Assembly (NCBI GenBank): GCA_963980225.1
Contig: CAXBYW010000001.1
Location: forward strand, 35,301 to 99,300
Direction of reading: 5' to 3'
Length of the DNA: 64,000 nucleotides
DNA from: an uncultured bacterium
GTDB taxonomy: Bacteria > Patescibacteriota > Microgenomatia > UBA1400 > MFAQ01
Part shown: piece by piece, positions 2,611 to 36,494 of the stretch
Layout of the letters: every line of letters begins with the position of its first letter
Numbering within the stretch: position 1 is the first letter of the stretch
Made by a program: the position numbers and the translations under genes
The notes under the pieces: generated by a model
Seen by the model: only the letters and a program-made list of their open reading frames with translations
The model's database searches: none
Told to the model about the DNA's origin: nothing

Positions 2611-4244
2611 TCTATTTAATACTTACCCTTGCTGCTTTCCTAAGACTTTTTCAACTAGGAGGTCTCCCTATCTCCCTTTTTGGTGATGAAATCGACGTGG
2701 GCTATCACGCTTGGTCTTTAGTCACCACAGGTCGTGACTACATGGGTAACTTGCTCCCAACCTACATCCAGAGCCTGGCAGAATGGCGTGCACCTCTTTT
2801 AATGTATGTCACCGCTCCATTCATCAAATTACTAGGCCCCACACCTTTTGCTGTTCGTCTGCCCGTAGCTCTTCTGGGGGTTCTCAACATCTACCTTATT
2901 TACTTATTAGCCAGAAAGCTATTTAAAAGTAAGTATGTTGGTCTTCTGTCAGCTCTAATTCTTGCTCTCACACCTTGGCACATCCATTACTCTAGAGCGG
3001 CTTTCGAGTCCACCCTTCTTCTCACTCTTCTTCTGTCCGGCACCTTGTTTTTTGTTGTTAAACGTTACTCCTTATCAATATTAAGCTTCATTCTTACTTT
3101 ATATACCTACTCAACCGCTAACCTCTTTACTCCGCTACTTGCCCTATCCTTGTTTTTAATCTACAAAAGTAAAGATACAACTGCCAAGCTTTTTAAGAAG
3201 TCATGCCTACTTCTTTTACTACTACCCATCGCTTACCACCTTACTCTAGGTCAAGCGGCCGGTCGCTTCAGTCTCGTTAGTGTATTTAAAGATAAAGAAA
3301 TAACCTACGACATAATCAACCAACGCACCTCACCTTGGGTTGACCAAAATGATGTTGAAGAAAAAATATTCCACAACAAGGCCATCTCTTATGCTGGCAA
3401 AGTGGGCTCAAACTACCTATCTGCTTTTTCTCCTCAGTTCTTGTTCATCTCTGGTGACCCTAACTTCAGACACTCAGTAGGTAGATTTGGAGAACTTCTC
3501 TGGGCCACCGCACCATTTTTACTTCTTGGGTTTGTTATTTTAGTTAAAAATATCAGAAAGAAAGAAAACAAATTGATCTTGGCTTGGCTTTTACTATCTC
3601 CCATCCCTTCTGCTCTTACTTTTGATGGCGCTATGCACGCTACCCGCTTAATTCTTATGCTTCCACCTTTAGTCATGATCACTGCCTTGGGTATAAAGCA
3701 CATCTCTGCTTTGGTAACCAACAAAAAGATATTCAAGGTCTACGCCTTTATATTCTTTCTCATCTTAGCTCTAAGTTCTAGAGCCTACTGGCATCGCTAC
3801 TCATTCCACTACAAATTTGAATCAGCTCGTCACTGGCATGATGGTTACCAAGAAATCGGTAACAAGCTAGCACCAAGGTTAGAATCAGCCGGGAGAGTTT
3901 TTATAAACAACACCTACGAACCATCACTATTAAAGTTTGCCTTTTTTGCCAAGTATCCACCCGTCAAGTTCCAGCAAGATTTTACAGGAGATGTTCCAGA
4001 AGAAAACATAATACCAGGCTTTGACGGTTTCAAGTTTGCAGACAAGTACTACTTTGGTAATGCAAGAAACTTAAGCGACCTATTTAAAATTCTAGAGCCA
4101 GGTGATATCTACTTAGCCGTTCAAAGCAAAGAAGTGCCAGGGGACTGGGACTGGTCAAAGGAACCACCACAAGAACTAAAGGTTTTAGACTACACTAAGG
4201 ATGTATTTAACTCTCCGCTTTTTTATCTAGTTTCTCCTCGATAA
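2607..4244 (+). CDS. ArnT/PMT-like GT-C glycosyltransferase (GT39/83-like), tandem paralog 1 of 5
   Basis: 545 aa. N-terminal LRLFQLGGLP…DEIDVGYHAWSLVTTGRD, the DE loop motif of PMT_2/ArnT-like enzymes, and AVRLPVALLGVL. Polytopic membrane domain plus C-terminal soluble domain of about 200 aa. Confidence 0.75.
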   Translation: MIYLILTLAAFLRLFQLGGLPISLFGDEIDVGYHAWSLVTTGRDYMGNLLPTYIQSLAEWRAPLLMYVTAPFIKLLGPTPFAVRLPVALLGVLNIYLIYLLARKLFKSKYVGLLSALILALTPWHIHYSRAAFESTLLLTLLLSGTLFFVVKRYSLSILSFILTLYTYSTANLFTPLLALSLFLIYKSKDTTAKLFKKSCLLLLLLPIAYHLTLGQAAGRFSLVSVFKDKEITYDIINQRTSPWVDQNDVEEKIFHNKAISYAGKVGSNYLSAFSPQFLFISGDPNFRHSVGRFGELLWATAPFLLLGFVILVKNIRKKENKLILAWLLLSPIPSALTFDGAMHATRLILMLPPLVMITALGIKHISALVTNKKIFKVYAFIFFLILALSSRAYWHRYSFHYKFESARHWHDGYQEIGNKLAPRLESAGRVFINNTYEPSLLKFAFFAKYPPVKFQQDFTGDVPEENIIPGFDGFKFADKYYFGNARNLSDLFKILEPGDIYLAVQSKEVPGDWDWSKEPPQELKVLDYTKDVFNSPLFYLVSPR

Positions 4245-4653
4245 TCTTAATAGTCATCGGAAATCCAGACGGTGTTATATTCATTCCTGCTACCAAGTCA
4301 CTATCATCAACAATCTCTCCGTTAACTGGGCTCACCAAAGTTAATTTATCCATCATGTATTTTTGTTTCTCTACTTTTTTTACTGCTACATCTAGTTTTG
4401 CCTGAGCAATTTCCTTGACACCTTTTTCCTCCTCATTTTGGGGACTAGGTAGCTTCCTGGCTACATCTTCAAACTCTGCTCTAGCTCGTCGATAGTTAGC
4501 CAGGTCAATATCGAGGTCAATTTTATCTAGTTTGTCATCTAGTTTAGCCAGTCCTTGTCCTTTTTTGACAATATCTCCTTTTTTTACACCTACCCACACT
4601 ACAGTTCCTCCTTGGTAAAACCTCATCTTGATCTTTTTGTATTTGGTCGCCAT
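4207..4653 (-). CDS. HlyD/membrane-fusion-protein-like fragment (lipoyl-hairpin region only); probable gene remnant
   Basis: 148 aa. GGTVVWVGVKKGDIVKKGQGLAKLD, then a coiled-coil segment, then LTLVSPVNGEIV, which is the classic periplasmic adaptor lipoyl-domain split motif. It lacks the N-terminal TM anchor and the C-terminal beta-barrel/MP domains. It overlaps the 3' end of the upstream GT39 gene by 38 nt in antisense. Confidence 0.4.
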   Translation of the reverse strand: MATKYKKIKMRFYQGGTVVWVGVKKGDIVKKGQGLAKLDDKLDKIDLDIDLANYRRARAEFEDVARKLPSPQNEEEKGVKEIAQAKLDVAVKKVEKQKYMMDKLTLVSPVNGEIVDDSDLVAGMNITPSGFPMTIKIIEEKLDKKAES

Positions 4654-4731: not shown

Positions 4732-6378
4732 ATGATAAAAAAGGGTTTAATCATAGTTTTAATTTTGGGTGCAGTTTTAAGACTGGTATCTTTGGGACAG
4801 GTCCCCGCAGGCATCTCTCCGGATGAAGTCTCTCAAGGATACAGCGCCTACTCTCTTTTAAAGACGGGTCAAGACGAATGGGGACTATCATGGCCCTTAA
4901 CCTCCTTTAGATCGTTTGTAGACTACAAGGCTCCTCTACAGACCTATTTAATGATCCCTTCAGTTGCTGTTTTTGGCCTAAATGAGTTTGCCGTTCGTCT
5001 CCCCTCAGCTATCTTTGGCATACTAGCCATCTACGTTGTTTACTTACTCACCAGTGAGTTGTTCAACAAAAAAACGGGTCTAGTCGCTGCCTTTCTCTTA
5101 GCCATCTCTCCTTGGCACATCCAGTTCTCTCGCACCGCTCTAGAGGTCAATCTTTCTTCCTTTCTTTTTCCCTTAGGTCTGTACCTTTTCCTAAAAGGCC
5201 TTAAAAAACCAAAGACCCTAATTCTTGCAAGTTTAGTCTGGGGATTAAACCTTTACTCGTATCACGCCGCTAAGTTCTTTCTCCCTCTGTTCTTAGTACC
5301 TTTAGTTCTCATCAATCTAGAATCGCTTAAAAAAATAAAGGTAAAACAACTCACCATTCCCCTAGCACTCCTTTTATTTTTCTTACTACCCTCTCTTTAT
5401 CTAAGTTTCTTTAGTCCCGTCGGTGCCAGAAACAAAGACTTAATCATCACGAACTTGAATCAATCCCAACTAGAGTCAATCTCAAGCGAGCAGTATCTCT
5501 CACCTTTAAATAAAATATCTCCTCAACTAACCCGAGTCTTTCACAACAAAGCGATCTACATAGCTGATCAGTTTGCCAGTAACTACCTGACCTACCTTAC
5601 TCCCACATTTTGGTTTACAGAAGGAGGCAGCGAAACCACCTACTCGATTATTCCTGGTAGGGGACTTCTATATCTCTGGCAACTACCATTTATTATCTTA
5701 GGTTTAGTAAGCTTGCTGTCCATAAAAAACAAAAAGACCAAAGCAATTTTACTTTCCTGGATCTTACTTGCCGCTATTCCGGCTGCTTTAACCAAAGAAG
5801 GCTATCGCCCCAACAGGGCAGGGTCATTCTTAGGATTATGGGAAATCATCACCGCTTTTGGTTTAGTCCAACTACTCAAACTACCAGCAAGATACAAAAA
5901 AGCTACCCATTACATATTAGGCATAGTCATCCTAGCCTCATCTGTTCTATATATAGAAGACTACTGGCTTGCCTCACCCATTAGGTTCCCCAACAGCCTA
6001 TCTTATGGCTACCGTGACTTGATGACTAAGCTAGTCCCCTTAGAAGAAGAATTTGACGAGATAATAATAAATAGGGGCACTCAGTCCCAGTCCTTTGTCG
6101 CTTTTTACAAGAAGCTAGATCCAGTTATTTTTCAAAGTTACTCATCTGATTGGTGGAAAAGGTTTGAAAAGACAGATCTTTTATACCTAGACATGTTAGA
6201 TGACTATCAGTTAGAGAATTACAGATTCAAGACAATCCACTTACCAGAGGACTTAGGGGAGCACACACTACTAGTCTTACCGGCCAAAACTTTAGATCAT
6301 CAGTACCTGCCTTTTGTCTTTGACACCGTCTTTTATCCCAACAGGGAACCGTTCCTTTATTTACTTAAAAGCAAATGA
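4732..6378 (+). CDS. ArnT/PMT-like GT-C glycosyltransferase, tandem paralog 2
   Basis: 548 aa. LRLVSLGQVPAGISPDEVSQGYSAYSLLKTGQDEWG, FVDYKAPLQTYL, AVRLPSAIFGILAIY. C-terminal motif YPNREPFLY. TACAAT at 4718-4723, 8 nt upstream of the ATG. Confidence 0.75.
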   Translation: MIKKGLIIVLILGAVLRLVSLGQVPAGISPDEVSQGYSAYSLLKTGQDEWGLSWPLTSFRSFVDYKAPLQTYLMIPSVAVFGLNEFAVRLPSAIFGILAIYVVYLLTSELFNKKTGLVAAFLLAISPWHIQFSRTALEVNLSSFLFPLGLYLFLKGLKKPKTLILASLVWGLNLYSYHAAKFFLPLFLVPLVLINLESLKKIKVKQLTIPLALLLFFLLPSLYLSFFSPVGARNKDLIITNLNQSQLESISSEQYLSPLNKISPQLTRVFHNKAIYIADQFASNYLTYLTPTFWFTEGGSETTYSIIPGRGLLYLWQLPFIILGLVSLLSIKNKKTKAILLSWILLAAIPAALTKEGYRPNRAGSFLGLWEIITAFGLVQLLKLPARYKKATHYILGIVILASSVLYIEDYWLASPIRFPNSLSYGYRDLMTKLVPLEEEFDEIIINRGTQSQSFVAFYKKLDPVIFQSYSSDWWKRFEKTDLLYLDMLDDYQLENYRFKTIHLPEDLGEHTLLVLPAKTLDHQYLPFVFDTVFYPNREPFLYLLKSK

Positions 6379-8048
6379 AGCTTTTAAAAAAACCTTGGGT
6401 TGCCTTACTACTAATTACTTTCTTTGCTTTTGGTCAAAGGTTTTTTAATATATCCTCAAATCCTCCAGCTTTAAACTGGGACGAAGTCAGCCATGGCTAC
6501 AACGCTCTTTCAATCTTAAAGACGGGTGCAGATGAATGGGGTGTAAGGTTTCCCTTAATATTTAAAGCCTTCGGTGACTACAAACTTCCTTTATATATCT
6601 ATCTAACCGCCATCCCAGTATATTTTCTAGGGTTAACTACCACCGCCGTCCGTTTAGTTTCTGTTTTAGCCGGCACCCTAGCCATTCCTGGTATCTATCT
6701 ATTAACCAATCAACTATTCCCTAAGAAAAAATCACTACCCTTTTTGGTCGCCTTCCTTTTAGCTATCAATCCTTGGCACTTCTTTATATCAAGACCTGCT
6801 TTAGAAGCCAATCTAGCTTTAACCTTAATCATCTTTGGTTTTTACTGTTTACTTAAGGCTTTTAAAAATCCTAAGTTCTATTTACCGTCATCTATCTTGT
6901 TAGGTCTGTCTCTTCATACATACAATGTCTCTCGTGTCTTTGTTCCCCTCCTTCTTATTATCTTCTTTATCATCTACCGTCCCAAGTTTAAATTTGACCT
7001 AGTCCGCACCATCTCAGTCGCTATCATCACTCTTTTCTTCTCCATAGTCGCTTATCAAGTTTTTTCTGGCAGTGGTACTGCTCGCTACTCCAAAATATCT
7101 ATTCTCTCAGACTCAGCCGTTTATCAGTTAGGTTTATCTAGAGCAGACAGTTCTCTACCTCCACTTTTGGCTAAACTTCGTTTTAATCGCCCAATTTATT
7201 TTTTATCCGAGTTTGCTAAATACTACCTATCTTACTTCTCTCCAAACTTTATCTATCAATCTCAAGGTGCTCAGTATCAGTTTGCCATCCCGGGTAAAAA
7301 TCTATTCACCTTACCAGTCAGTATCTTAAGTTTAATTGGCGGGCTCTATCTACTGCTAAAAGAAAGATCTAAATCTACCTATCTTTTGTTCTCCTGGCTT
7401 TTACTATCTCCAGTCGGGGCCGCTCTAACAGCTGACCCGCCTCAAGCCATACGTCCAAACCCCATGATTCCAGCAGTTATAATTCTTGCTAGCATTGGTT
7501 TTTACTGGGTAGTTAGTCTTTTTAAAAAGCGTCGTTGGGCACAAGTTGCTATATCAGTATCATTAATTTTAAGCTGCTTACTAGGCTATATCCGCTATCT
7601 AGACTCTTACTACCAAGAGTATCAAACCAAATATGCCTGGTCCTGGCAGTATGGTCATGAAGAGACGCTAGAGTACATAGAAGAAAACAAAGATGATTAC
7701 GACAGGGTTATCTTTACCAAGTACTACGGTGAGCCTCACATCTTCTACGCCTTTTTCACCAATCTTGACCCTAAAAATCTCCAACCTGGTGGTGACAACA
7801 TTCGTTTCAAGAAAACAGACTGGTTCTGGACAGATAGAGTAAATACCACCTACTTTGTTAATGACTGGGAGATTCCTAAGCTACTAGAAGACACCCTTCC
7901 TCTAGAAAGTGGGGGACAAGTAGCTTTAGAAGATAGTCTATTGGTTTTCTCTCCTCAGAGTCTCCCCCAAAACGTAAAGATCTTAAAAACCATCAGCTTC
8001 CAAAACGATCTACCGGTCTTCTATATAGCTATCCTTGACAAAGACTGA
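6375..8048 (+). CDS. ArnT/PMT-like GT-C glycosyltransferase, tandem paralog 3
   Basis: 557 aa. NWDEVSHGYNALSILKTGADEWG, FGDYKLPLYIYL, AVRLVSVLAGTLAI. ATGA-coupled to paralog 2. Confidence 0.75.
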   Translation: MKLLKKPWVALLLITFFAFGQRFFNISSNPPALNWDEVSHGYNALSILKTGADEWGVRFPLIFKAFGDYKLPLYIYLTAIPVYFLGLTTTAVRLVSVLAGTLAIPGIYLLTNQLFPKKKSLPFLVAFLLAINPWHFFISRPALEANLALTLIIFGFYCLLKAFKNPKFYLPSSILLGLSLHTYNVSRVFVPLLLIIFFIIYRPKFKFDLVRTISVAIITLFFSIVAYQVFSGSGTARYSKISILSDSAVYQLGLSRADSSLPPLLAKLRFNRPIYFLSEFAKYYLSYFSPNFIYQSQGAQYQFAIPGKNLFTLPVSILSLIGGLYLLLKERSKSTYLLFSWLLLSPVGAALTADPPQAIRPNPMIPAVIILASIGFYWVVSLFKKRRWAQVAISVSLILSCLLGYIRYLDSYYQEYQTKYAWSWQYGHEETLEYIEENKDDYDRVIFTKYYGEPHIFYAFFTNLDPKNLQPGGDNIRFKKTDWFWTDRVNTTYFVNDWEIPKLLEDTLPLESGGQVALEDSLLVFSPQSLPQNVKILKTISFQNDLPVFYIAILDKD

Positions 8049-8062
8049 AAAACACCTATAAT
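8035..8062 (+). promoter_or_regulatory. Near-consensus sigma70-type promoter (TTGACA-N16-TATAAT)
   Basis: TTGACA at 8035-8040 lies inside the last codons of GT39 paralog 3. TATAAT is at 8057-8062, giving a predicted TSS near 8069. It sits upstream of the 60-aa ORF, which has its own GGAGG Shine-Dalgarno site. Confidence 0.55.
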
Positions 8063-8113
8063 ACGGGATACACCTTAAAAAGTTAAACTATAGAAATCTT
8101 AGAGGAGGTTTAA

Positions 8114-8296
8114 ATGCGCAAGTTCTTGCAGACATCTTTTGGCGAGTTCCTTATGCTTGTTCTATTTATTGCGCTCGCAAGTATTTTGATGTATGTGTGT
8201 AATGCTCCAACATCTTTAAATATCACATTCGTCATCGTTTTTTCAGTTTGTGGGGCAATAGCCTTCTTCATGACTCATACAAAACCTAAAGGCTAA
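8114..8296 (+). CDS. Small hydrophobic protein, 60 aa, two predicted TM helices
   Basis: MRKFLQTSFGEFLMLVLFIALASILMYVCNAPTSLNITFVIVFSVCGAIAFFMTHTKPKG. GGAGG Shine-Dalgarno at 8104-8108 with a 5-nt spacer. Dedicated promoter upstream and intrinsic terminator downstream. Confidence 0.6.
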   Translation: MRKFLQTSFGEFLMLVLFIALASILMYVCNAPTSLNITFVIVFSVCGAIAFFMTHTKPKG

Positions 8297-8322
8297 ACCA
8301 ACTCCACAATCTTCTTCTTCAC

Positions 8323-8353
8323 AGCTCTCGCTTATAATAGCGAGAGCTTTTTT
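8323..8353 (+). terminator. Rho-independent terminator
   Basis: Perfect 9-bp stem AGCTCTCGC / GCGAGAGCT with an 8-nt loop TTATAATA, followed by TTTTTT. It sits immediately 3' of the 60-aa ORF and abuts the ATG at 8354. Confidence 0.75.
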
Positions 8354-9997
8354 ATGGTCTCTTGGTATACTTACTGTATGTTATCCAAGAAAACTAAGAC
8401 ATCAATCTTGTTGCTCGTAGCAATCTTAACTCTAGGCTTCTTGCTTCGCTTTTACAAACTCTCCACTCTTCCTCCAGGTTTAACTTGGGATGAAGCCGGT
8501 CTAGGTTACAACGCTTACTCAATTTTAAAAACTGCTAGAGACGAACATGGCACTTTCTTGCCTTTAACCTTCAAGTCCTTTGGTGACTACAAGCCCGGCC
8601 TTTATGTTTATCTAGCCGTGCCATTTATAGCTCTTACAGGGCTTACAGAAGTAGCTGTACGTCTTCCTTCAGTCATTGCCGGCACCTTAGCCATCTTTGG
8701 GGTATATCTTCTAGTCAATCAGTTGTTTGACAAAAAGAAAGCTCTCTTAGCAGCTCTCGTTTTAAGTCTCTCTCCATGGCATATTCATTTCTCCCGTGGT
8801 GCTTGGGAGGTTAACATATTTACAACAGTTCTCCTTTTTGCTATTTACTTTTTTATAAGGAGTTTGAAAAACTCAAGATACTTTATTCCTTGGGTTTTAT
8901 TGGCAGCTTCCACCATATTTATATATCAAGGAGCAAAAATGCTTACCCCTCTTATATTTTTAGGTCTTCTTGTAATCTACTTCCCTCAAGTCAAAAAAAG
9001 TTTTTCAAGCTGGTTAATACCAAAAAGCCACAAGGTTGTCGCTATTTTTTCCAGTCTTTTACTATCATTCTTCTTTATTCTTAACTTAACCGGCCCTGCA
9101 GGTAATCGCTTGGCTCGTCTAAGTATCTTTGGCTACAAGCCACAATTGTCTGGTGACAAGCTATTTCACAACCAGCCCTTGCTAACATCTCAGTTAATTG
9201 CATCAAGATATCTTTACCATTTCTCTCCAGAAGTTTTGTTTTACCAAGGTTCGACCATAACAGAAAGAGGTAACCTGCCCAAGCAAGGCATGCTTTATAT
9301 CACCGAGGCTTTTTTCTTACTCTTGGGTTTTGCAGCTCTAGCTAAGTTGAAAAACAAACAGTCACGGAACCTGGTTCTCTCACTTCTTTTTTTAAGTCCA
9401 ATACCAGCCTCCATGACCCTGGCAGAGTTTTCTACCTTTAGGGCTTTATTCATTGTCATACCTTTAAGTATTATTTCTGCTCTAGGTTTGCATTATTTTT
9501 TAACCAAATATAAAAAAATCATCACTCTTCCCATCCTTTTCTTTGTCATTTTAAATATTGTTTTGACTATAAATATCTACTTTAATCACTCATTTGAAGG
9601 TCTGGCCCCAGAGTTCAACTATGGTTACAAGCAGGCCTTTGATCAGATAAACACACTACCAGAGGCTAACAATATTATTTTTACCGACGTTTATGGTCAA
9701 CCTTATATTTATTACCTATTCTATAACCAATTCGACCCCGCAGCTTACCAAAAAATCAATTCATATCAAGGCCAAGGTATCGATGTTGGTAAAGTAGATA
9801 GGGTGGGGGATAAAATAGAGTTCCATCAGTTCAGCCACACAGAGATCTTTAACCACGCAAACACTTGGTTTGTTGGCACTAGAGGAAACATTCCTGACGA
9901 ATTTAACATAAATGACGGTAGGGTAGAGTACTATAGTGAAATATCGATACCCAACAGGGAGCCTGCATTCAGGTTAGTAAAGACCTCCAAGTTATGA
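8354..9997 (+). CDS. ArnT/PMT-like GT-C glycosyltransferase, tandem paralog 4
   Basis: 547 aa. LRFYKLSTLPPGLTWDEAGLGYNAYSILKTARDEHG, FGDYKPGLYVYL, AVRLPSVIAGTLAIFG. C-terminal IPNREPAFRLV. The true start may be the internal ATG near 8378. Confidence 0.75.
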   Translation: MVSWYTYCMLSKKTKTSILLLVAILTLGFLLRFYKLSTLPPGLTWDEAGLGYNAYSILKTARDEHGTFLPLTFKSFGDYKPGLYVYLAVPFIALTGLTEVAVRLPSVIAGTLAIFGVYLLVNQLFDKKKALLAALVLSLSPWHIHFSRGAWEVNIFTTVLLFAIYFFIRSLKNSRYFIPWVLLAASTIFIYQGAKMLTPLIFLGLLVIYFPQVKKSFSSWLIPKSHKVVAIFSSLLLSFFFILNLTGPAGNRLARLSIFGYKPQLSGDKLFHNQPLLTSQLIASRYLYHFSPEVLFYQGSTITERGNLPKQGMLYITEAFFLLLGFAALAKLKNKQSRNLVLSLLFLSPIPASMTLAEFSTFRALFIVIPLSIISALGLHYFLTKYKKIITLPILFFVILNIVLTINIYFNHSFEGLAPEFNYGYKQAFDQINTLPEANNIIFTDVYGQPYIYYLFYNQFDPAAYQKINSYQGQGIDVGKVDRVGDKIEFHQFSHTEIFNHANTWFVGTRGNIPDEFNINDGRVEYYSEISIPNREPAFRLVKTSKL

Positions 9998-15864: not shown

Positions 15865-16716
15865 ATGATGAACAGCATGGCGATCGACATGGGTACAGTT
15901 TTTCACGCTATAAACAGACTAGAAAAAAATTACTCAGGTAAAAATCAATACTGGAAAGCAGTAAACCCAGAACAAGCAGTTGCTTTGGAGTTTTACAGAG
16001 TCTTCCATGACATGCTCTCCAGGTCTGAAGGTTTCAAGGGAAAAGCCTCTCCAGACTGGGAAGTTCTCAATGAATTTCTAGAGGCAAATGATCTCGGTAA
16101 AATGTTCGACAGGTCTCTTAATGGGATTGGTATCATATCAATTCTTGACGAGTTGATACAGTATTCTGAAGAAGTTTCTCTTTGTGAAATCTACGGTGGT
16201 GATTACAACAATCATGCTGGTGTCAAAATTCCCGAAGGTTCTTATTTTGTCAGTCATATTCAAAGTTTAGACAATGAATTGATATGCATACACACCAAAG
16301 ACAACAATTCTCTCTGGCTTACCATGCCAGATTCACCTCCTAAAAATCCAGTTGATCTACTGCAAATTGTTTTCAACACAATGATGTCTCCAGGTACAGG
16401 CTCTCTTATCGGACCTTTTGGACATATCAAAGTCCCCCAAATCAGGTTAGATCTTAAGCCAGACATTAGTTTTCTCTCTGGAGCTTACACTTACGATCAA
16501 AATTCAAATAAACGATGGGTTATTTCCCAGGCATATCAACGATTCAAGTTGAGAACAAATCTCGAAGGACCCAGGGTAATAAGAAGGGGTACGTCTCCAG
16601 ACGAAACGGAAATATTAGTCTTCGACAGACCTTTCATTGGCTGGTTGGATCATCCAGGATCAAATTTACCCGCTGCCATTTTTTATGCGGATTACGATAG
16701 CTGGAAAGCACAATGA
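15865..16716 (+). CDS. Hypothetical soluble protein (orphan, 283 aa)
   Basis: Strong GGAGG Shine-Dalgarno at 15855-15859 with a 5-nt spacer. A 125-bp AT-rich non-coding stretch lies upstream and an intrinsic terminator follows directly. No TM segments and no recognisable family. Confidence 0.55.
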   Translation: MMNSMAIDMGTVFHAINRLEKNYSGKNQYWKAVNPEQAVALEFYRVFHDMLSRSEGFKGKASPDWEVLNEFLEANDLGKMFDRSLNGIGIISILDELIQYSEEVSLCEIYGGDYNNHAGVKIPEGSYFVSHIQSLDNELICIHTKDNNSLWLTMPDSPPKNPVDLLQIVFNTMMSPGTGSLIGPFGHIKVPQIRLDLKPDISFLSGAYTYDQNSNKRWVISQAYQRFKLRTNLEGPRVIRRGTSPDETEILVFDRPFIGWLDHPGSNLPAAIFYADYDSWKAQ

Positions 16717-16741
16717 TTTAAGATAAAAATAACTTCACCCC

Positions 16742-16771
16742 CCCCCACAGATATCCTGTGGGGGTTTTTTT
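16742..16771 (+). terminator. Rho-independent terminator
   Basis: 9-bp GC-rich stem CCCCCACAG / CTGTGGGGG, loop ATATC, then TTTTTTT. Confidence 0.75.
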
Positions 16772-16799: not shown

Positions 16800-17456
16800 A
16801 TGACATATCTAATTATTCCTACTTTTAACGAAGGTAGTCGCTTAACCAAGACTTTAAAGGAAGTTAAAAAACATATAAACGAAAAAAATATAGTTGTAGT
16901 TGATGATGGTTCAAGTGTTCCTGAAAGTTTACCCAAAGACTCTAAAGCTACTTTAATTCGCCACCAGATAAACCTGGGTAAGGGTATGGCCATGAAAACA
17001 GGCGCAGACTTTGCTTTTGGAAAAGGTGCTAAAGCAGTTATCTTCATAGACGCAGACCTCCAACATGATCCCAAGCATTTACCTAAATTTAAAAAATTAC
17101 TTAGAAACAATGACTTGGTCTTTGCATCAAGAGTGCCCAGCCTTAAGGCACCTCTAGTTCGCTTGCTGGGAAACAAGTTTGCCTCCATATACATAAATGT
17201 CCTTTTTGGGGTATATATCTCGGACATCTTGTCTGGTTACCGAGCTTTAAACAAAAAAGCCTACAACCTACTTAAGTGGACATCACCTCGTTATGGTGTA
17301 GAGACAGAAATTGTTGCCAGGTTAGGGAAACACACAGACAAGCTAAAATGGGTAGAATTCCCCATAGAGACAATTTATATAAATAAGTACAAGGGTGTTA
17401 CAATCATAGATGCAATTAAAATTTTACAAAAATCAATATGGTGGAAGCTTTCTTAG
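16800..17456 (+). CDS. DPM1/GtrB-like polyprenol-phosphate sugar synthase (GT2), no TM segment
   Basis: LIIPTFNEGSRL…VVVDDGSSV…GKGMAMKTGADFAFGKGAKAVIFIDADLQHDP. The start was moved to the ATG at 16800 because the 16758 start would overlap the terminator. TACAAT at 16785-16790. The antisense ORF 16718..17227 is judged spurious. Confidence 0.7.
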   Translation: MTYLIIPTFNEGSRLTKTLKEVKKHINEKNIVVVDDGSSVPESLPKDSKATLIRHQINLGKGMAMKTGADFAFGKGAKAVIFIDADLQHDPKHLPKFKKLLRNNDLVFASRVPSLKAPLVRLLGNKFASIYINVLFGVYISDILSGYRALNKKAYNLLKWTSPRYGVETEIVARLGKHTDKLKWVEFPIETIYINKYKGVTIIDAIKILQKSIWWKLS

Positions 17457-17782
17457 GTATTCAAATAATCTCAATTTCTTTTGCTGGATTTATGCTTTAC
17501 ATAACTTTTTTACACAGCAAGAGAGGTAGTCTAAATAAGATAGAGTTTTATTCATGGGTTTTTCTATGGCTAGCTTTTATTTACTTTGCTCTTTTCCCCA
17601 AAGTACTAGACCCAATTTTGGCTCAACTTTTTGTTGCTCGTACAATGGATCTTCTGATGATTGCTGCCTTTATGATTTTGGCTTATCTTGGATTTCAAAA
17701 TTATATTGAAATAAAAAATTTACAAAAACAAATTAGAAGAATGGTCAGTCAAAAAGCTATCAAAAAAGCCAGTAAAAAATGA
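17438..17782 (+). CDS. Small 3-TM membrane protein with charged C-terminal tail (DUF2304-like GT2 partner)
   Basis: 114 aa with three hydrophobic helices, then NYIEIKNLQKQIRRMVSQKAIKKASKK. Overlaps the GT2 by 19 nt and the downstream ferredoxin by ATGA. Confidence 0.45.
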   Translation: MVEAFLGIQIISISFAGFMLYITFLHSKRGSLNKIEFYSWVFLWLAFIYFALFPKVLDPILAQLFVARTMDLLMIAAFMILAYLGFQNYIEIKNLQKQIRRMVSQKAIKKASKK

Positions 17783-24928: not shown

Positions 24929-27900
24929 TTAATCTCCTTTTCTAATAAATGCTTCTACAATTTCTATTCTACTAGATGGAGAAAGAATAACCTCATCAAT
25001 TTCTTGTTTCATCCAACAGTATTGGGCGCTAATCCTTACGAGATACTCTGTAGCCGTATCAGAAGGCACTAGATCAATCAGGATATTAGATTCTGGAGTT
25101 TTACAGTAGTTAATCTCAAGCTTGCCAATGGCGTCTGATTTTAATTTGAGATGAACATAATTACCTGTGGTCTTATCAAGACCATTCTCAACCAAGAGTC
25201 TTGCAGAACTACTTGCATTTATCACTGTTCGTTCATCAATAAGTGCGGCAAGTATTTTTGTATTTTCACTTGCATTCTTTTCATCAAACGTACCCCACAC
25301 ATATGGCAACTTCTTAAAATCAAACTCTTGGCTCAAAATAGTTTGAGGAAGTAGCCCATTGGCATTTAAAGCAGAGAATCTTTCTGATTTCCATAATAAA
25401 TATCCGTCTACATATCCAAGTGGAGTATAGTTGTCATAAATAAATTCATAAATTTTGTAACTTCTTATTTCATTTGGAACACCATCAATGCTATTAGCGT
25501 GTGTAATCGGTTGCCTAAAGACAACAATAGGGATTTCATTTTTATCATATGCTTTTTTAATTTTATCGAGTGAAAAATCTTGGATAACATCTGACGTCCA
25601 ATATGCACTAGGTATAAAATAATTTACGAACTTTTTATCCGTCACGACATACAACATCGGCGAGCTCGTCATGTCTAAAAACGTCTGTTCACCCTCTAAA
25701 TTATCAACTAAAAAACTAGCTATTTCTTTATATTGTGAATCATTAACTCTCACCCTACTTTCTTTGTTCTCCCAGTTATATAGATTAACAAGTCTAGTGT
25801 CTTTTAGCAATGCTGAACTTGAAGGGGAGAAAAGCTGATAGGCAAACAAAGCAACTGAAAAGAAAATCATTGCCCCTTCTTTTGAAAAAGACTTAACATA
25901 AAAAGGAATAGCCATCCCTAGGAAAATAAATAAATAAGGATTAAACCCAAGTACGAACAAGGACTGTCGTTGAACTGAACGTAAGGACATAACTAAAGAA
26001 AAAATCGCCAAGAAAAGAAGTAGATATTGGATTGATGTAAACCGGTGAAGGTTTTTTTTCAGAGCACTAACGGTGAAGAATAAGACATAAAATACACCAA
26101 TCAGTGGAAGTAAAAAATACTGGAAAATAGCCACTGGTGAATACGAGGCGGCAATGTTTATTAATCCTTGTGCTTGAGCTTGAAACTTCACAAATTCAAA
26201 CGCTTGTCCAATTAATCCAGAAAGAGACTCATTTCCTATATAGCTAGCAAAAGCTCCAAGTGAGGCGGTGAATATTCCCACGAGAAACAAAGATGATAAG
26301 ACTTGCTTAAAATTTATTACTGATACACGCTTGTCAATAAGTTTAAAAAGATTTTGAACCATGAGTATAAAAATGGCAGAAACAAAACAAGCAATTCCAA
26401 AATCGACTCTCCATGCGGTGAAAAATACACAGGCAAACCAGTAGGCAACCAACCGACGATAACTTGGTTTTTTAACGAGCCAAATAAACGAAAGGGCCAT
26501 GGCAAACGAAGACAGATAATATGTGTTTGCAAGAGACGTACTATGTCCATAAATAAAACGCGTACCTCCAAAAACACCCAGTAAAGGAAGGAAGAGTAAA
26601 GATAGTGTGGCAAAAAACGAATTAGTAAGCGAGTAAGTGACAAAATACAAAAAAACAATCTCAAAGATTTTAATGCCCCATTCCCACAACCAAGGTTCAA
26701 ACGCTTTGTAACCATTTACTACTGAGTATAAAAACTGACTAACTAAACTGGAAATGCCATGGGTGGGATAAATATTAACAAAGGGTATGCTTCCATGCGA
26801 AAAAAGTTGTTGTATTGTGATCAAGTCTTCTCCTTGGTGGAACATATCAAGATGGATGGGAATATTGATAAAGTTTTTGTATTCGTTGAATACCACAACC
26901 GAAACAATTAGTAGTGGAAAATACACGTACGAGGCAATAGGAAGTGGTCTATCTTTCCATGTGCGTTTTGTTCCTAAGAAAAACATCACTAAAGATAAAA
27001 AACTCAAAGTAGACACCGTAAAGATAGATACACCTCTAGCAGAAAAATTATATAAACCAGATAGTGAGAACTGGATTTCGTTTGAAATAGGTATTGAAAC
27101 TGGAATTAAAAGTAAGGGAATACTCGCAAACAATATACTGTTTAGGGTTGATTTTCGTTTGGCAAGCACCACCCCCTTTGTCAGTAAATAACATCCGATC
27201 CAAAAAAATACTAAAAAGATAAAATGTAAGGGAAAATATTCATATGTAAACATAAAACTACCTTTCACAAGTAACCATCTTGTGAAAAAAGGCACAAACG
27301 GAAGAATCAAACTAAGAACAATTAAGTTGTAATTATTTAATAATTTAGAAAGTATCCGGTTAGACGAATAAAACATCTTGATTCCAAGCATCACATATGT
27401 GATCGAGAACAAATATAAAAGCATGTGAAGAATGTTTACATATATCATCGCACCATTTAGATAGTGAAGAACAAACACAATTATGGAGACCAAGGAGATA
27501 GAAAAGAGCATACGCCGTTCATTTGCTAGTAACCGAGGCCCAACATACCTGGAAAGAACAATGTCAGTCTTAAAAAAGACGTAGTACAAAAAAGAAAAAA
27601 TCAAAATGAATAACGCAATTATCGAAACATACGACCAGGATCTCAATGAAATGTCTACTCCTTCAAGCACAGCGATACCAATCGTTCTTTCTGTAAAGTT
27701 TTTTAGGCTGTAATTGATGTTTTCAAATTTATATTGTATGGCCAACAAACTAAAGAGAGCACTAGATAGAGGGATCCATAAACCAGAAGCTACTTTACTA
27801 TCTCCAGAGTTTTTGGGTGGTAGTTTAAGTCCAAGGTAGGTATAAGCAGTAAAGGCAATTAAAAAAGACGAGAGTATTAATATAATCCCATTAACATCCA

Positions 27901-28003
27901 GGACCTTACTTAAGACAACTAAGCTAACAAAAAAATAACTTAGCGAAACAATAATTTTATCAATAAAGGAAACATGTGTACCTGTCTTTGTTTTAGTATG
28001 CAT
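24929..28003 (-). CDS. Giant polytopic membrane protein (1024 aa), candidate GT-C/YfhO-like glycosyltransferase
   Basis: More than 25 hydrophobic segments and a C-terminal soluble domain of about 250 aa. It sits between a GT2 and a TM-less DPM1-like GT2, with 6-nt and 27-nt intergenic gaps, all on the same strand. Confidence 0.4.
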   Translation of the reverse strand: MHTKTKTGTHVSFIDKIIVSLSYFFVSLVVLSKVLDVNGIILILSSFLIAFTAYTYLGLKLPPKNSGDSKVASGLWIPLSSALFSLLAIQYKFENINYSLKNFTERTIGIAVLEGVDISLRSWSYVSIIALFILIFSFLYYVFFKTDIVLSRYVGPRLLANERRMLFSISLVSIIVFVLHYLNGAMIYVNILHMLLYLFSITYVMLGIKMFYSSNRILSKLLNNYNLIVLSLILPFVPFFTRWLLVKGSFMFTYEYFPLHFIFLVFFWIGCYLLTKGVVLAKRKSTLNSILFASIPLLLIPVSIPISNEIQFSLSGLYNFSARGVSIFTVSTLSFLSLVMFFLGTKRTWKDRPLPIASYVYFPLLIVSVVVFNEYKNFINIPIHLDMFHQGEDLITIQQLFSHGSIPFVNIYPTHGISSLVSQFLYSVVNGYKAFEPWLWEWGIKIFEIVFLYFVTYSLTNSFFATLSLLFLPLLGVFGGTRFIYGHSTSLANTYYLSSFAMALSFIWLVKKPSYRRLVAYWFACVFFTAWRVDFGIACFVSAIFILMVQNLFKLIDKRVSVINFKQVLSSLFLVGIFTASLGAFASYIGNESLSGLIGQAFEFVKFQAQAQGLINIAASYSPVAIFQYFLLPLIGVFYVLFFTVSALKKNLHRFTSIQYLLLFLAIFSLVMSLRSVQRQSLFVLGFNPYLFIFLGMAIPFYVKSFSKEGAMIFFSVALFAYQLFSPSSSALLKDTRLVNLYNWENKESRVRVNDSQYKEIASFLVDNLEGEQTFLDMTSSPMLYVVTDKKFVNYFIPSAYWTSDVIQDFSLDKIKKAYDKNEIPIVVFRQPITHANSIDGVPNEIRSYKIYEFIYDNYTPLGYVDGYLLWKSERFSALNANGLLPQTILSQEFDFKKLPYVWGTFDEKNASENTKILAALIDERTVINASSSARLLVENGLDKTTGNYVHLKLKSDAIGKLEINYCKTPESNILIDLVPSDTATEYLVRISAQYCWMKQEIDEVILSPSSRIEIVEAFIRKGD

Positions 28004-30410: not shown

Positions 30411-31667
30411 TTGATATACAATAGGATCGTGGACAAAATAAAATCACTTCTTTCTTCTCAAACATCCAAAGATACTTTCATTAGCCTAGCTGGTAGTGGT
30501 GTGGTTGCCGTTGCTGGAGTCATCTTTACTATTCTTTTAGCTAGGGCTTTAGAACCAGAAAATTTTGGTGTCTATTCCTCACTAGCGGCCATAGTAGGCA
30601 TCGTCTCTGTCTTAGGAGACTTAGGAATTGGAGCAGCCTTGGTTAACTTCTTACCTAAGATGCCCAACAAGCGTCAGGTATTAGTGGCTACTAGTTTCTG
30701 GTTCCAGTCAATTATTGCCCTGGTCTTTGCCTTACTAGTCTCTTTATCAAGTTTTGCTAGTGATCTATTTGTGCCCGGATCAATTCCGGCTCATTTAGTC
30801 TTTGCTGGTTTGCTTACTGGGGTATATATCCTTAATCAATACGCCGTTGGTCTTTTGAAAGCAGAAAAAAAGTTTCTAGCTGCCTCTATAGTCCAGTCAG
30901 TCGATTCCATAGGTAAGCTTGCTCTTACCTCTCTTCTTTTTTACAACAGCCAGTTAACTATTGGCTTAGCTCTTCTAGCCAACGTCATCTCAGTCATTAT
31001 CTCTACCACCTATGCCATGCGTCAAGAGTTTAGGAAACTACCCTTAATTCTTCCCAAGCTGTATTTAAAAAAGATTTTTTCCTTTGCTAAGTGGATCGGC
31101 ATATCCAGGATCTTTGGTGTTGCCATTTCCAGAATAGACATAGTCTTGCTAAACATCATGCATTCTAGTTTTTCTGCCGGTATATTTGCCGCCGCCAGTC
31201 GTATTATCTTTGTCTTTGCTTTGGTCGTTTCCAGTCTCGGTTCCGTGGTGGCTCCACGTTTCTCGGGCTTTACCAAAAGAGCACAAACAATTGCTTATCT
31301 TAAAAAACTGTTTACCTTAGTGAGTTTAGTTTCGGTTGTTATGTTGCTGGTAGTTCTTTTGGCCAAGCCAATCATTCTGTTGGTGTTTGGTGCCAAGTAC
31401 TTAACTGCAATCCCGGTTTTCAAGGCACTTACCATCGCTCTTATACCTTTCTTGTTCTCGCTCGTAACCTCCAATCCTATTATCTACACTTACGGTCAAC
31501 CAGATTACTTTGCAAAAGTAACAATGGTGCAGGTAGTAATCCTGGTGGCCTTAGATATCCTCCTTATTCCTAAGTTGGGCGCAATGGCCCCTGCTGTCTC
31601 TATTGGTGTTTCAAACATGGTAATGCTTGTTCTTGGTGGAATGAAATTAAAGAAGCTATTAGCTTAA
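30411..31667 (+). CDS. MOP-superfamily oligosaccharide flippase (Wzx/Polysacc_synt-like)
   Basis: 418 aa with 12-14 TM helices. The N-terminus …ISLAGSGVVAVAGVIFTILLARAL… is typical of PF01943 proteins. The start codon appears to be TTG at 30411. Confidence 0.6.
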   Translation: MIYNRIVDKIKSLLSSQTSKDTFISLAGSGVVAVAGVIFTILLARALEPENFGVYSSLAAIVGIVSVLGDLGIGAALVNFLPKMPNKRQVLVATSFWFQSIIALVFALLVSLSSFASDLFVPGSIPAHLVFAGLLTGVYILNQYAVGLLKAEKKFLAASIVQSVDSIGKLALTSLLFYNSQLTIGLALLANVISVIISTTYAMRQEFRKLPLILPKLYLKKIFSFAKWIGISRIFGVAISRIDIVLLNIMHSSFSAGIFAAASRIIFVFALVVSSLGSVVAPRFSGFTKRAQTIAYLKKLFTLVSLVSVVMLLVVLLAKPIILLVFGAKYLTAIPVFKALTIALIPFLFSLVTSNPIIYTYGQPDYFAKVTMVQVVILVALDILLIPKLGAMAPAVSIGVSNMVMLVLGGMKLKKLLA

Positions 31668-35945: not shown

Positions 35946-36494
35946 ATGAAGAAAAAAATCATAGCATATGTCTTTGCCTACATACTTGTAATGTCTGTCA
36001 TAACTTACTTTGAATACAGTAGATACAACACACTTGGACCAATTGAGGTTTCACACCAATTGGAATATCTACCTACTGACGATGTGTCGCTAACAAGTAA
36101 GGTGGGTGGTGCAGAGTCTTTTGAACTACCCTTTGATCAGTTTAAAAAACTATCTTTTGAGGGGGCAACATACATTGTTTTTTCTCAAAATCTAGACACG
36201 GTCAAAGTCAACGCCACGGCCTTAAGCTCTGGTGTCATCTTCCATACAGTGATTGACGAGATAGAAATACCAACAGTTGTAATGGGGAAAATATTCCTTA
36301 CAAGATATGAAATCGTTGATAAAAAAATCACTGATGGTACCATCATCTTAAGCCTGACCCCGGACGATAGTGAGTTTTTAATGTTAAACATTGTGGTCTG
36401 GGTTGTTACAGGCCTATCCGCATGCTTGTTTGGCATGATATACACAGTACGACATATGATCAAACGAGGCACTCTCACTTGGGAAGAGACTTAA
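35946..36494 (+). CDS. Hypothetical protein with N- and C-terminal TM anchors, paralog B
   Basis: 182 aa. GAGGAG Shine-Dalgarno at 35934-35939. HQLEYLPTDDV, SFELPFDQFK, FHTVIDEIE, DGTIILSL. Confidence 0.55.
   Translation: MKKKIIAYVFAYILVMSVITYFEYSRYNTLGPIEVSHQLEYLPTDDVSLTSKVGGAESFELPFDQFKKLSFEGATYIVFSQNLDTVKVNATALSSGVIFHTVIDEIEIPTVVMGKIFLTRYEIVDKKITDGTIILSLTPDDSEFLMLNIVVWVVTGLSACLFGMIYTVRHMIKRGTLTWEET

Follow-up and report, generated by a model that had tools for sequence, protein, structure and literature searches.

In eukaryotes, very small membrane proteins such as DPM2, DPM3 and OST4 act together with membrane glycosyltransferases. Multi-component transmembrane glycosylation systems likewise include small membrane proteins, such as GacJ, of the DUF2304 family, and those of the GtrA/GtcA type (PMC8035078). 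The locus examined here also places a small membrane protein gene among glycosyltransferases: it belongs to a 64,000-nucleotide stretch of DNA (hereafter the window) from an uncultured bacterium of the Patescibacteriota (GenBank assembly GCA_963980225.1, contig CAXBYW010000001.1, positions 35,301 to 99,300 of the forward strand). The window is a large surface-glycan island with five tandem PMT_2 genes (Pfam), and between the third and fourth paralogs of this GT39/PMT_2 array lies a cassette (8035-8353) encoding a protein of 60 amino acids (aa) with two transmembrane (TM) segments. Our comparative analysis, which is made on sequences, indicates that the cassette is probably a real and expressed gene for a small integral membrane protein. 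Its product would belong to a new orphan membrane-protein family, ordinary in kind, whose role can be suggested from context only.

As a preliminary description of this DNA had proposed, the cassette is laid out as a self-contained transcription unit, here on the + strand. It begins with a TTGACA hexamer at -35 (8035-8040) and a TATAAT hexamer at -10 (8057-8062) separated by 16 nucleotides (nt), and the -35 box lies, as first reported, within the last codons of paralog 3 (557 aa, 6375-8048, Pfam PMT_2, stop codon at 8046-8048). The predicted transcript start, whose position is inferred, and a conserved leader motif TACACCTTAAAAAG fall together at 8069-8082, which would give the 60-aa gene a 5' untranslated region (UTR) of about 45 nt. 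The Shine-Dalgarno sequence GAGGAGG (8102-8108), with its already noted GGAGG core (8104-8108), is separated by a 5-nt spacer from the ATG at 8114, from which the open reading frame (ORF) MRKFLQTSFGEFLMLVLFIALASILMYVCNAPTSLNITFVIVFSVCGAIAFFMTHTKPKG extends to 8296. The hairpin character previously attributed to its product holds: two hydrophobic segments cover residues 12-28 and 37-53, and the Lys and Arg residues are confined to both ends of the protein (positions 2, 3, 57 and 59), so that the positive-inside rule predicts a two-TM hairpin with both N and C termini inside and a short outer loop (NAPTSLN). A CU-rich 3' UTR (CTCC ... CTTCTTCTTC, 8303-8321), complementary to the Shine-Dalgarno site, and an intrinsic terminator (8323-8353), located 26 nt after the stop codon, close the unit. 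This terminator consists of the stem AGCTCTCGCT/AGCGAGAGCT (8323-8332/8339-8348), a TATAAT loop and a T5 run (8349-8353); the preliminary description was right as to its presence and not as to its perfect 9-bp stem, since the stem has 10 bp with a 6-nt loop, for a stability of -18 kcal/mol that was equalled in 0 of 200 shuffles.

The closest genomes are metagenome-assembled genomes of Patescibacteria/Microgenomates, mostly labelled Collierbacteria. With the 60-aa protein as query, a word-indexed search of 5.8 billion proteins returned only the protein itself, and a full HMMER search of 1.84 billion representatives returned itself and two spurious TM matches; relatives were therefore traced through the neighbouring genes. 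The contexts of paralog 4 orthologues of 67-80% identity were fetched, and a scan of metagenome DNA with the downstream motif returned two loci. The search that had been called for, that of comparable ORFs beside GT39 genes in relatives, was successful, as cassettes occupy the same position (hereafter the slot) in four other lineages, represented by loci L025, L029, L031 and L033. The best comparison is offered by L025, where paralogs 2, 3 and 4 are each 80% identical to those of the window (paralog 3 to L025 1697-3388; the identity to L011 4926-6590 is 72%) and where four-fold degenerate sites are 42-49% identical to those of the window with 32% expected at random. Promoter, Shine-Dalgarno site, ORF and terminator thus recur together at one position in lineages whose synonymous sites are nearly saturated, in agreement with the self-contained unit initially put forward.

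A hexamer scan of both strands of the window found a single 12/12 match to the consensus promoter, the runner-up reaching 10/12, for an expectation of 0.11 such matches per window. The same TTGACA-N16-TATAAT arrangement, 12/12 and with a spacer of the same length, is present in L025 (-35 box at L025 3357-3362). Among the five cassette lineages, the consensus -35 box is restricted to the window and L025, and the perfect TATAAT is kept in all five; the hexamers are not the unconserved chance matches that had been considered as a refutation. Furthermore, the -35 box sits in the C-terminal tail of paralog 3 (..ILDKD*), a tail that is not conserved in other lineages, and its retention is therefore not explained by constraint on the paralog 3 protein. 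With its two hexamers, a spacer within the 16-18 nt range, its location upstream of a gene and its conservation in relatives, this promoter is of the consensus housekeeping-sigma (sigma-70) type, its activity being predicted. The leader motif, TACAC[CA]TT[AG]AAAAG, is found 6-7 nt 3' of the -10 box in the window, L029, L031 and L033 and as the variant ATACCTTAAAAAA in L025; it shows no enrichment at other places in the window. Outside these first ~14 nt, the remainder of the leader varies between the five lineages.

The translation and termination signals are equally recurrent. A Shine-Dalgarno site with a GGAG core (GGAGA, AAGGAG or AAGGAGG, the L025 version being GGAGA) is present in all five cassettes, and so is a stable hairpin followed by a U-run (-11.5 to -18 kcal/mol, the five terminators having been folded one at a time and not as an alignment). 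The L025 terminator has a stem identical to that of the window and a different loop, and the three other lineages have differing stems (GCTCTCACC/GGTGAGAGC, CCTCAGCA/TGTTGAGG and CCTCTCCCA/TGGGAGAGG). A GC-rich hairpin, a U-run and a structure kept under sequence change are what is expected of an intrinsic terminator. Directly 3' of it, the sequence TCTTGGTATACTTAC is invariant in the five cassette lineages. In L029, L031 and L033, the order of elements is the same, with TATAAT, leader motif, Shine-Dalgarno site, membrane ORF, terminator and then TCTTGGTATACTTAC.

What lies between these signals evolves in another way. In L025, the slot ORF is 90 aa long with two TM segments; when this locus is aligned with the window at the DNA level, the flanks are ~85-90% identical and the ORF interior is near random. 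At the protein level, the Smith-Waterman score of the two ORFs (50) was reached by 0 of 5000 full shuffles and by 36 of 5000 segment-preserving shuffles, and both ORFs keep two TM segments, basic ends, an N-terminal R.FL motif and an AP..LN turn. The chance of an open frame is P=0.017 for the 60 codons of the window ORF and P=0.002 for the 90 codons of the L025 ORF. The latter starts with three 11-residue basic repeats (EKIKKFLKATV, KKIKKFLKPII and EKIRNFLKDTM, L025 3447-3545) that look as if the RKFL motif at the N-terminus of the window protein had been triplicated; TRF detected no DNA-level tandem repeat behind these peptide repeats.

In the other lineages the slot is occupied by longer proteins, all of them unannotated hypotheticals: a 143-aa four-TM protein in L031 (P0126), a 232-aa protein in L028/L029 (the L029 ORF was used here) and two tandem paralogs of 230 and 229 aa (P0124 and P0125), ~40% identical to each other, in L033 (3282-4684, - strand). 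The 143-aa and 232-aa proteins are homologous (BLASTP E=6e-8), and the full-length form of the family has four TM helices and a beta-rich C-terminal domain of ~90 aa, for a total of 230 aa. The first 72 residues of the four long proteins were made into a profile and searched against 950 stop-to-stop ORFs, taken from the window and L025; the 60-aa ORF was the sole match (E=3.9e-4, 16.6 bits, next best E=0.22), with a score reached by 0 of 2000 composition-preserving shuffles. Comparison of the ORF with the long proteins by hhalign gave E=0.0024 in the same register, with a probability of 12%. A profile of the C-terminal half (TM3-TM4) did not match the 60-aa ORF, which argues that the N-terminal match is not a generic TM similarity.

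Beyond the common slot, promoter element, leader motif, Shine-Dalgarno site, terminator and TCTTGGTATACTTAC, the 60-aa protein shares with the long proteins an [RK]K.F motif, TM1, a loop of the form P-[TS]-S-L.[LI][TI][YF] (APTSLNITF in the window) and TM2. It differs from them in that its ORF ends after TM2, and TM3, TM4 and the C-terminal beta-rich domain are missing. By these profile and motif comparisons, the 60-aa protein is a truncated derivative, reduced to the first hairpin, of a lineage-restricted four-TM orphan family, seen in a few Collierbacteria-like lineages, of which it is the shortest member. The two-TM state is common to the window and L025 and probably predates their split. 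An internal duplication of the four-TM proteins, of which the 60-aa protein would be a dimerising half, was considered and rejected (N- versus C-half hhalign E=0.27, the C-half profile missing the ORF). The slot family has no further relatives in 5.8 billion proteins, no match in viral contigs or PDB sequences, and nothing above noise in Pfam, PHROGs, NCBIfam and PADLOC. An AlphaFold2 model of the 230-aa relative, computed with a 4-sequence alignment, had a pLDDT of 45, too poor for use.

The cassette was initially described as inserted within the GT39 array, and related loci bear this out. In L011, L027, L030, L034 and L035, the paralog 3 and paralog 4 orthologues overlap by 4 bp and there is no cassette. 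In ten more distant Collierbacteria loci, the gene at the paralog 4 position overlaps, abuts or lies 11 nt from the upstream GT39 gene in nine cases, and in the tenth (L020) the two ORFs overlap by ~180 bp. With nothing between the two genes in these 15 related loci, the tight junction is ancestral and the cassette is a derived and patchy insertion. Gene number in the slot thus ranges from 0 to 2 across lineages. Since many relatives have the same GT39 pair and no cassette, the 60-aa protein is not an obligate subunit or stabiliser of these enzymes. In a neighbor-joining (NJ) tree of paralog 4, the window and L025 are grouped in 69 of 100 bootstraps and the cassette lineages as a whole are not monophyletic (9 of 100 bootstraps), which makes cassette losses, or allele replacement via recombination, likely. 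Both states were also seen side by side in a single sample (ERZ24794654), which contains the cassette-bearing L028, with the 232-aa protein, and the cassette-free L027, with an empty overlapping junction.

Comparison with relatives also led us to correct the start of paralog 4. The terminator had been said to end 1 nt before the ATG of the next gene, that is, the start of the listed ORF at 8354; this ATG is unconserved, being replaced by ATA, ATT or GTT in relatives, and the conserved start is the ATG at 8378. The corrected gene (8378-9997, + strand, 539 aa, Pfam PMT_2) has an N-terminus equal in length to those of its orthologues, and a 539-aa version is called in some assemblies (P0006). The invariant TCTTGGTATACTTAC (8360-8374) ends 3 nt before this ATG and contains an extended -10 promoter, TGgTATACT (8363-8371, + strand), placed exactly 6 nt before the A of the start codon, from which the paralog 4 mRNA is predicted to be leaderless. 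Paralog 4 would thus be transcribed without a leader from its own conserved promoter downstream of the terminator. A TGGTATACT motif is also found 8-12 nt before other gene starts in related loci.

Such a start would not be isolated in this genome. Shine-Dalgarno motifs are absent from 53 of the 58 annotated long genes of the window and present in five, the 60-aa ORF coming in addition, and the earlier observation that the surrounding genes lack this signal is correct. A -10 hexamer located 6-9 nt before the ATG is the geometry of a leaderless mRNA, and a -10-like hexamer is found at this distance in 10 of the 24 window genes that have an upstream gap and are first in their operon; internal genes of the window operons mostly overlap their upstream neighbour. 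The genome therefore seems, from gene layout, to rely on leaderless starts and on coupling by overlap. A leadered, Shine-Dalgarno-dependent gene is unusual in such a setting, as had been stressed for this island; three other window genes have a similar design (4207-4599 on the - strand, 15865-16716 and 35946-36494). The literature searches made on Shine-Dalgarno and leaderless usage in Patescibacteria and on Collierbacteria glycosyltransferases returned nothing directly relevant, only general background.

Taken together, these data are best accounted for by a small integral membrane protein gene that is probably genuine and expressed. The gene would be transcribed as a monocistronic unit of ~285 nt, reachable too by read-through from the upstream GT39 genes, and translated into a 60-aa helical hairpin with both ends predicted to be cytoplasmic and a short outer loop. 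Its insertion would have broken an ancestral translational coupling of paralogs 3 and 4, paralog 4 being served by its own extended -10 promoter.

Several observations weigh against this reading. In a metagenome-contig collection, 74 blocks index the exact 60-aa protein (23 contigs read), and 11 loci are 100% identical in DNA to the window over ~400 bp; all copies of the ORF being identical, within-population variation is uninformative for the ratio of nonsynonymous to synonymous changes (dN/dS). The ORF interiors of the window and L025 are not alignable at the DNA level and BLASTP finds no similarity between the two ORFs, which implies a very low constraint on protein sequence. Furthermore, the cassette is absent from close relatives with the same GT39 array, the cassette lineages do not form a clade in the paralog 4 tree, the tie to GT39 function is one of synteny only, and the size series of 232, 143, 90 and 60 aa resembles a progressive decay.

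The strongest competing account builds on this last point. It considers the ORF as the decaying remnant of a gene for a 230-aa membrane protein, devoid of a function of its own, in which selection keeps the flanks as operon punctuation, the kept parts being the terminator, as the end of the upstream GT39 operon, and the promoter from which transcription resumes for paralog 4. Slot sizes forming a series (230 + 229, 232, 143, 90 and 60 aa), an ORF interior evolving far faster than flanks or neighbours, and a slot that is dispensable in many relatives are all in line with such a decay. A remnant, however, needs neither perfect -35 and -10 boxes nor a strong Shine-Dalgarno site, and both are kept in the window and L025 at near-saturated divergence, with a -35 box in a stretch of paralog 3 where protein constraint does not explain it. 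Both ORFs are moreover still open, each against low chance probabilities, and both retain two TM segments, positive-inside ends, the R.FL motif and the AP..LN turn. We regard the remnant as unlikely, if a contender to be taken seriously.

A membrane-damaging peptide, of the type I toxin or holin-like kinds mentioned in the preliminary description, with translation restrained by an antisense RNA or by base pairing between the Shine-Dalgarno site and the CU-rich 3' UTR, would fit the small size, the high hydrophobicity and the strong expression signals of the 60-aa protein, and the two-TM, N-in/C-in topology resembles that of class II holins. In the minimum-energy fold of the window transcript, CUUCUUC/CUCC of the 3' UTR does pair with the Shine-Dalgarno site, and CUCCU pairs with AGGAG in the centroid fold of L025, both with weak ensemble support. 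Against this stand the three long cassettes, whose 3' UTRs have no anti-Shine-Dalgarno element, and the 5' UTR, which is unstructured when folded alone, the folding z-score of the whole transcript stemming from the terminator. The minus-strand antisense RNA whose search had been advised finds no promoter beyond chance-level matches, 9/12 in the window and 10/12 at another place in L025, hence not conserved in position. No Rfam match was obtained at gathering thresholds, and the only one in a permissive scan, with a nematode snoRNA, was at chance level (E=0.61); a search for tRNA genes was negative. The surroundings show no phage, lysis or mobile-element context: the cassette is bordered by neither terminal inverted or direct repeats nor a target-site duplication, and PHROGs and PADLOC gave no meaningful match. 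Finally, the relatives are membrane proteins of 143-232 aa, some with a soluble domain, which makes for a poor fit to a type I toxin or holin, and the synteny is stable across deep divergence. A toxin or holin-like function is accordingly very improbable.

Even less credit can be given to a regulatory leader, in which the strong promoter would feed paralog 4 by terminator read-through set by translation of the small ORF. A large gene directly preceded by a strong promoter, a short ORF and a terminator does recall such devices, but the stop codon lies 13-26 nt before the stem with no conserved anti-terminator pairing, the "leader" is in three lineages a 143-232-aa protein or two proteins, and the invariant extended -10 box that paralog 4 has for itself is positioned to give a leaderless start. 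As to a chance ORF with chance promoter-like and terminator-like matches, which an AT-rich genome could produce (35 weak promoter-like matches for 35.0 expected from shuffled sequence), it is effectively refuted by conservation, given a 12/12 promoter match expected 0.11 times per window and repeated exactly in L025, a terminator and a Shine-Dalgarno site recurring in five lineages, and a profile match to positional homologues.

If the 60-aa ORF is indeed an expressed membrane protein gene, its conserved synteny suggests high-level production and a membrane role as a dispensable and fast-evolving accessory of the neighbouring GT-C glycosylation machinery, of which it might be a partner, an adaptor or an acceptor. 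A more specific proposal, which we put forward as a speculation with little probability attached to it, is that the slot product evolves fast, is lineage-specific and serves in the membrane as a dedicated adaptor or acceptor of the flanking GT39 (protein-O-mannosyltransferase-like) enzymes. Pro-Ser/Thr-rich sequence is of the kind that bacterial PMT-type enzymes glycosylate. The best-conserved feature of the four long slot proteins is such a Pro-Ser/Thr-rich motif, P-[TS]-S-L, in the predicted outer loop, with the Pro and the second Ser invariant; this motif reads APTSL in the 60-aa hairpin and is reduced to AP..LN in L025. Were the proposal true, the 60-aa hairpin would be a minimal functional module, highly expressed thanks to the region's only consensus promoter and to one of its few Shine-Dalgarno sites, and the differences between lineages in gene number (0, 1 or 2) and protein size (60-232 aa) would correspond to a diversification of the surface-antigen or phage-receptor type.

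The cassette alone reveals no new mechanism. It does provide a well-delimited small-protein gene in an uncultured bacterium of the candidate phyla radiation (CPR), with comparative support for each of its expression signals, and it adds a so far undescribed family of orphan membrane proteins linked to an array of GT-C glycosyltransferases. Furthermore, within ~300 bp, a leadered Shine-Dalgarno gene stands beside a predicted leaderless one, a natural contrast in a Shine-Dalgarno-poor genome that is useful for testing the rules of promoter usage and translation initiation in Patescibacteria.

The island contains other genes of note. Besides the tandem array, it encodes a PIG-V-like GT-C, another PMT_2 protein, many GT2 and GT4 glycosyltransferases, methyltransferases and a Wzx-like protein. 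GT39 paralogs 1 and 2 are 488 bp apart, and the gap contains a 130-aa ORF (4207-4599, - strand) that starts from a GTG with a Shine-Dalgarno site and has weak biotin-lipoyl/HlyD-like Pfam matches; this ORF may represent a further accessory insertion into the array. The GT39 arrays of L030 and L031 have a minus-strand gene of 175 aa close to their upstream end. A second self-contained unit (15865-16764) comprises a Shine-Dalgarno site AAAGGAGG, an orphan ORF of 283 aa without any Pfam match and a strong terminator (CCCCCACAG...CTGTGGGGG followed by T7, 16742-16764) that closes it; near the corresponding position, right after a 358-aa gene, L028 and L031 encode a Bro-N domain protein. The Wzx/MurJ-like flippase ORF (335 aa, 30660-31667) is preceded by a gap of 265 nt and matches the Pfam models from about position 75, and it may be shortened or have a mis-set start. 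A 1024-aa ORF with no Pfam match (24929-28003, - strand) is found among GT2 genes.

How does the 60-aa protein compare with known systems? Type I toxins such as Hok, TisB and AapA1 and class II holins are similar to it in size and hydrophobicity, and the weakly supported pairing that might mask its Shine-Dalgarno site recalls the 5'-3' masking of type I toxin mRNAs. Type I toxins, however, are usually single-TM proteins, and the 60-aa protein has two TM helices and long homologues. The topology fits that of class II holins, but the cassette is set apart from them by its glycosyltransferase neighbours, the absence of viral relatives and the lack of a meaningful PHROGs match. With DPM2, DPM3 and OST4, the likeness, that of a small membrane protein beside membrane glycosyltransferases, is one of analogy only. 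These proteins belong to another domain of life, and the comparison with DPM2 and oligosaccharyltransferase (OST) small subunits drawn at the outset is not supported as a relationship, since there is neither sequence relation to DPM2, DPM3 or OST4 nor obligate co-occurrence with GT39, the cassette being missing at 15 related loci with the same GT39 pair. Indeed, a Pfam search of the 60-aa protein at E<=10 gave no match to DPM2, DPM3, OST4, GtrA (PF04138) or DUF2304 (PF10066).

The island does have a small membrane partner of known type, located elsewhere. A GT2 gene and an overlapping DUF2304 gene (114 aa, 17438-17782) form a pair at 16800-17782 that resembles GacI/GacJ and would make polyprenyl-phosphate sugar; this DUF2304 protein is of a described kind, and the 60-aa protein is not one of them. 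While the latter has two TM segments rather than three to four and is missing in many relatives whose GT-C genes are the same, it shares with GacJ and GtrA the general design of a small polytopic membrane protein encoded beside GT-A/GT-C enzymes that act on polyprenyl-phosphate sugars.

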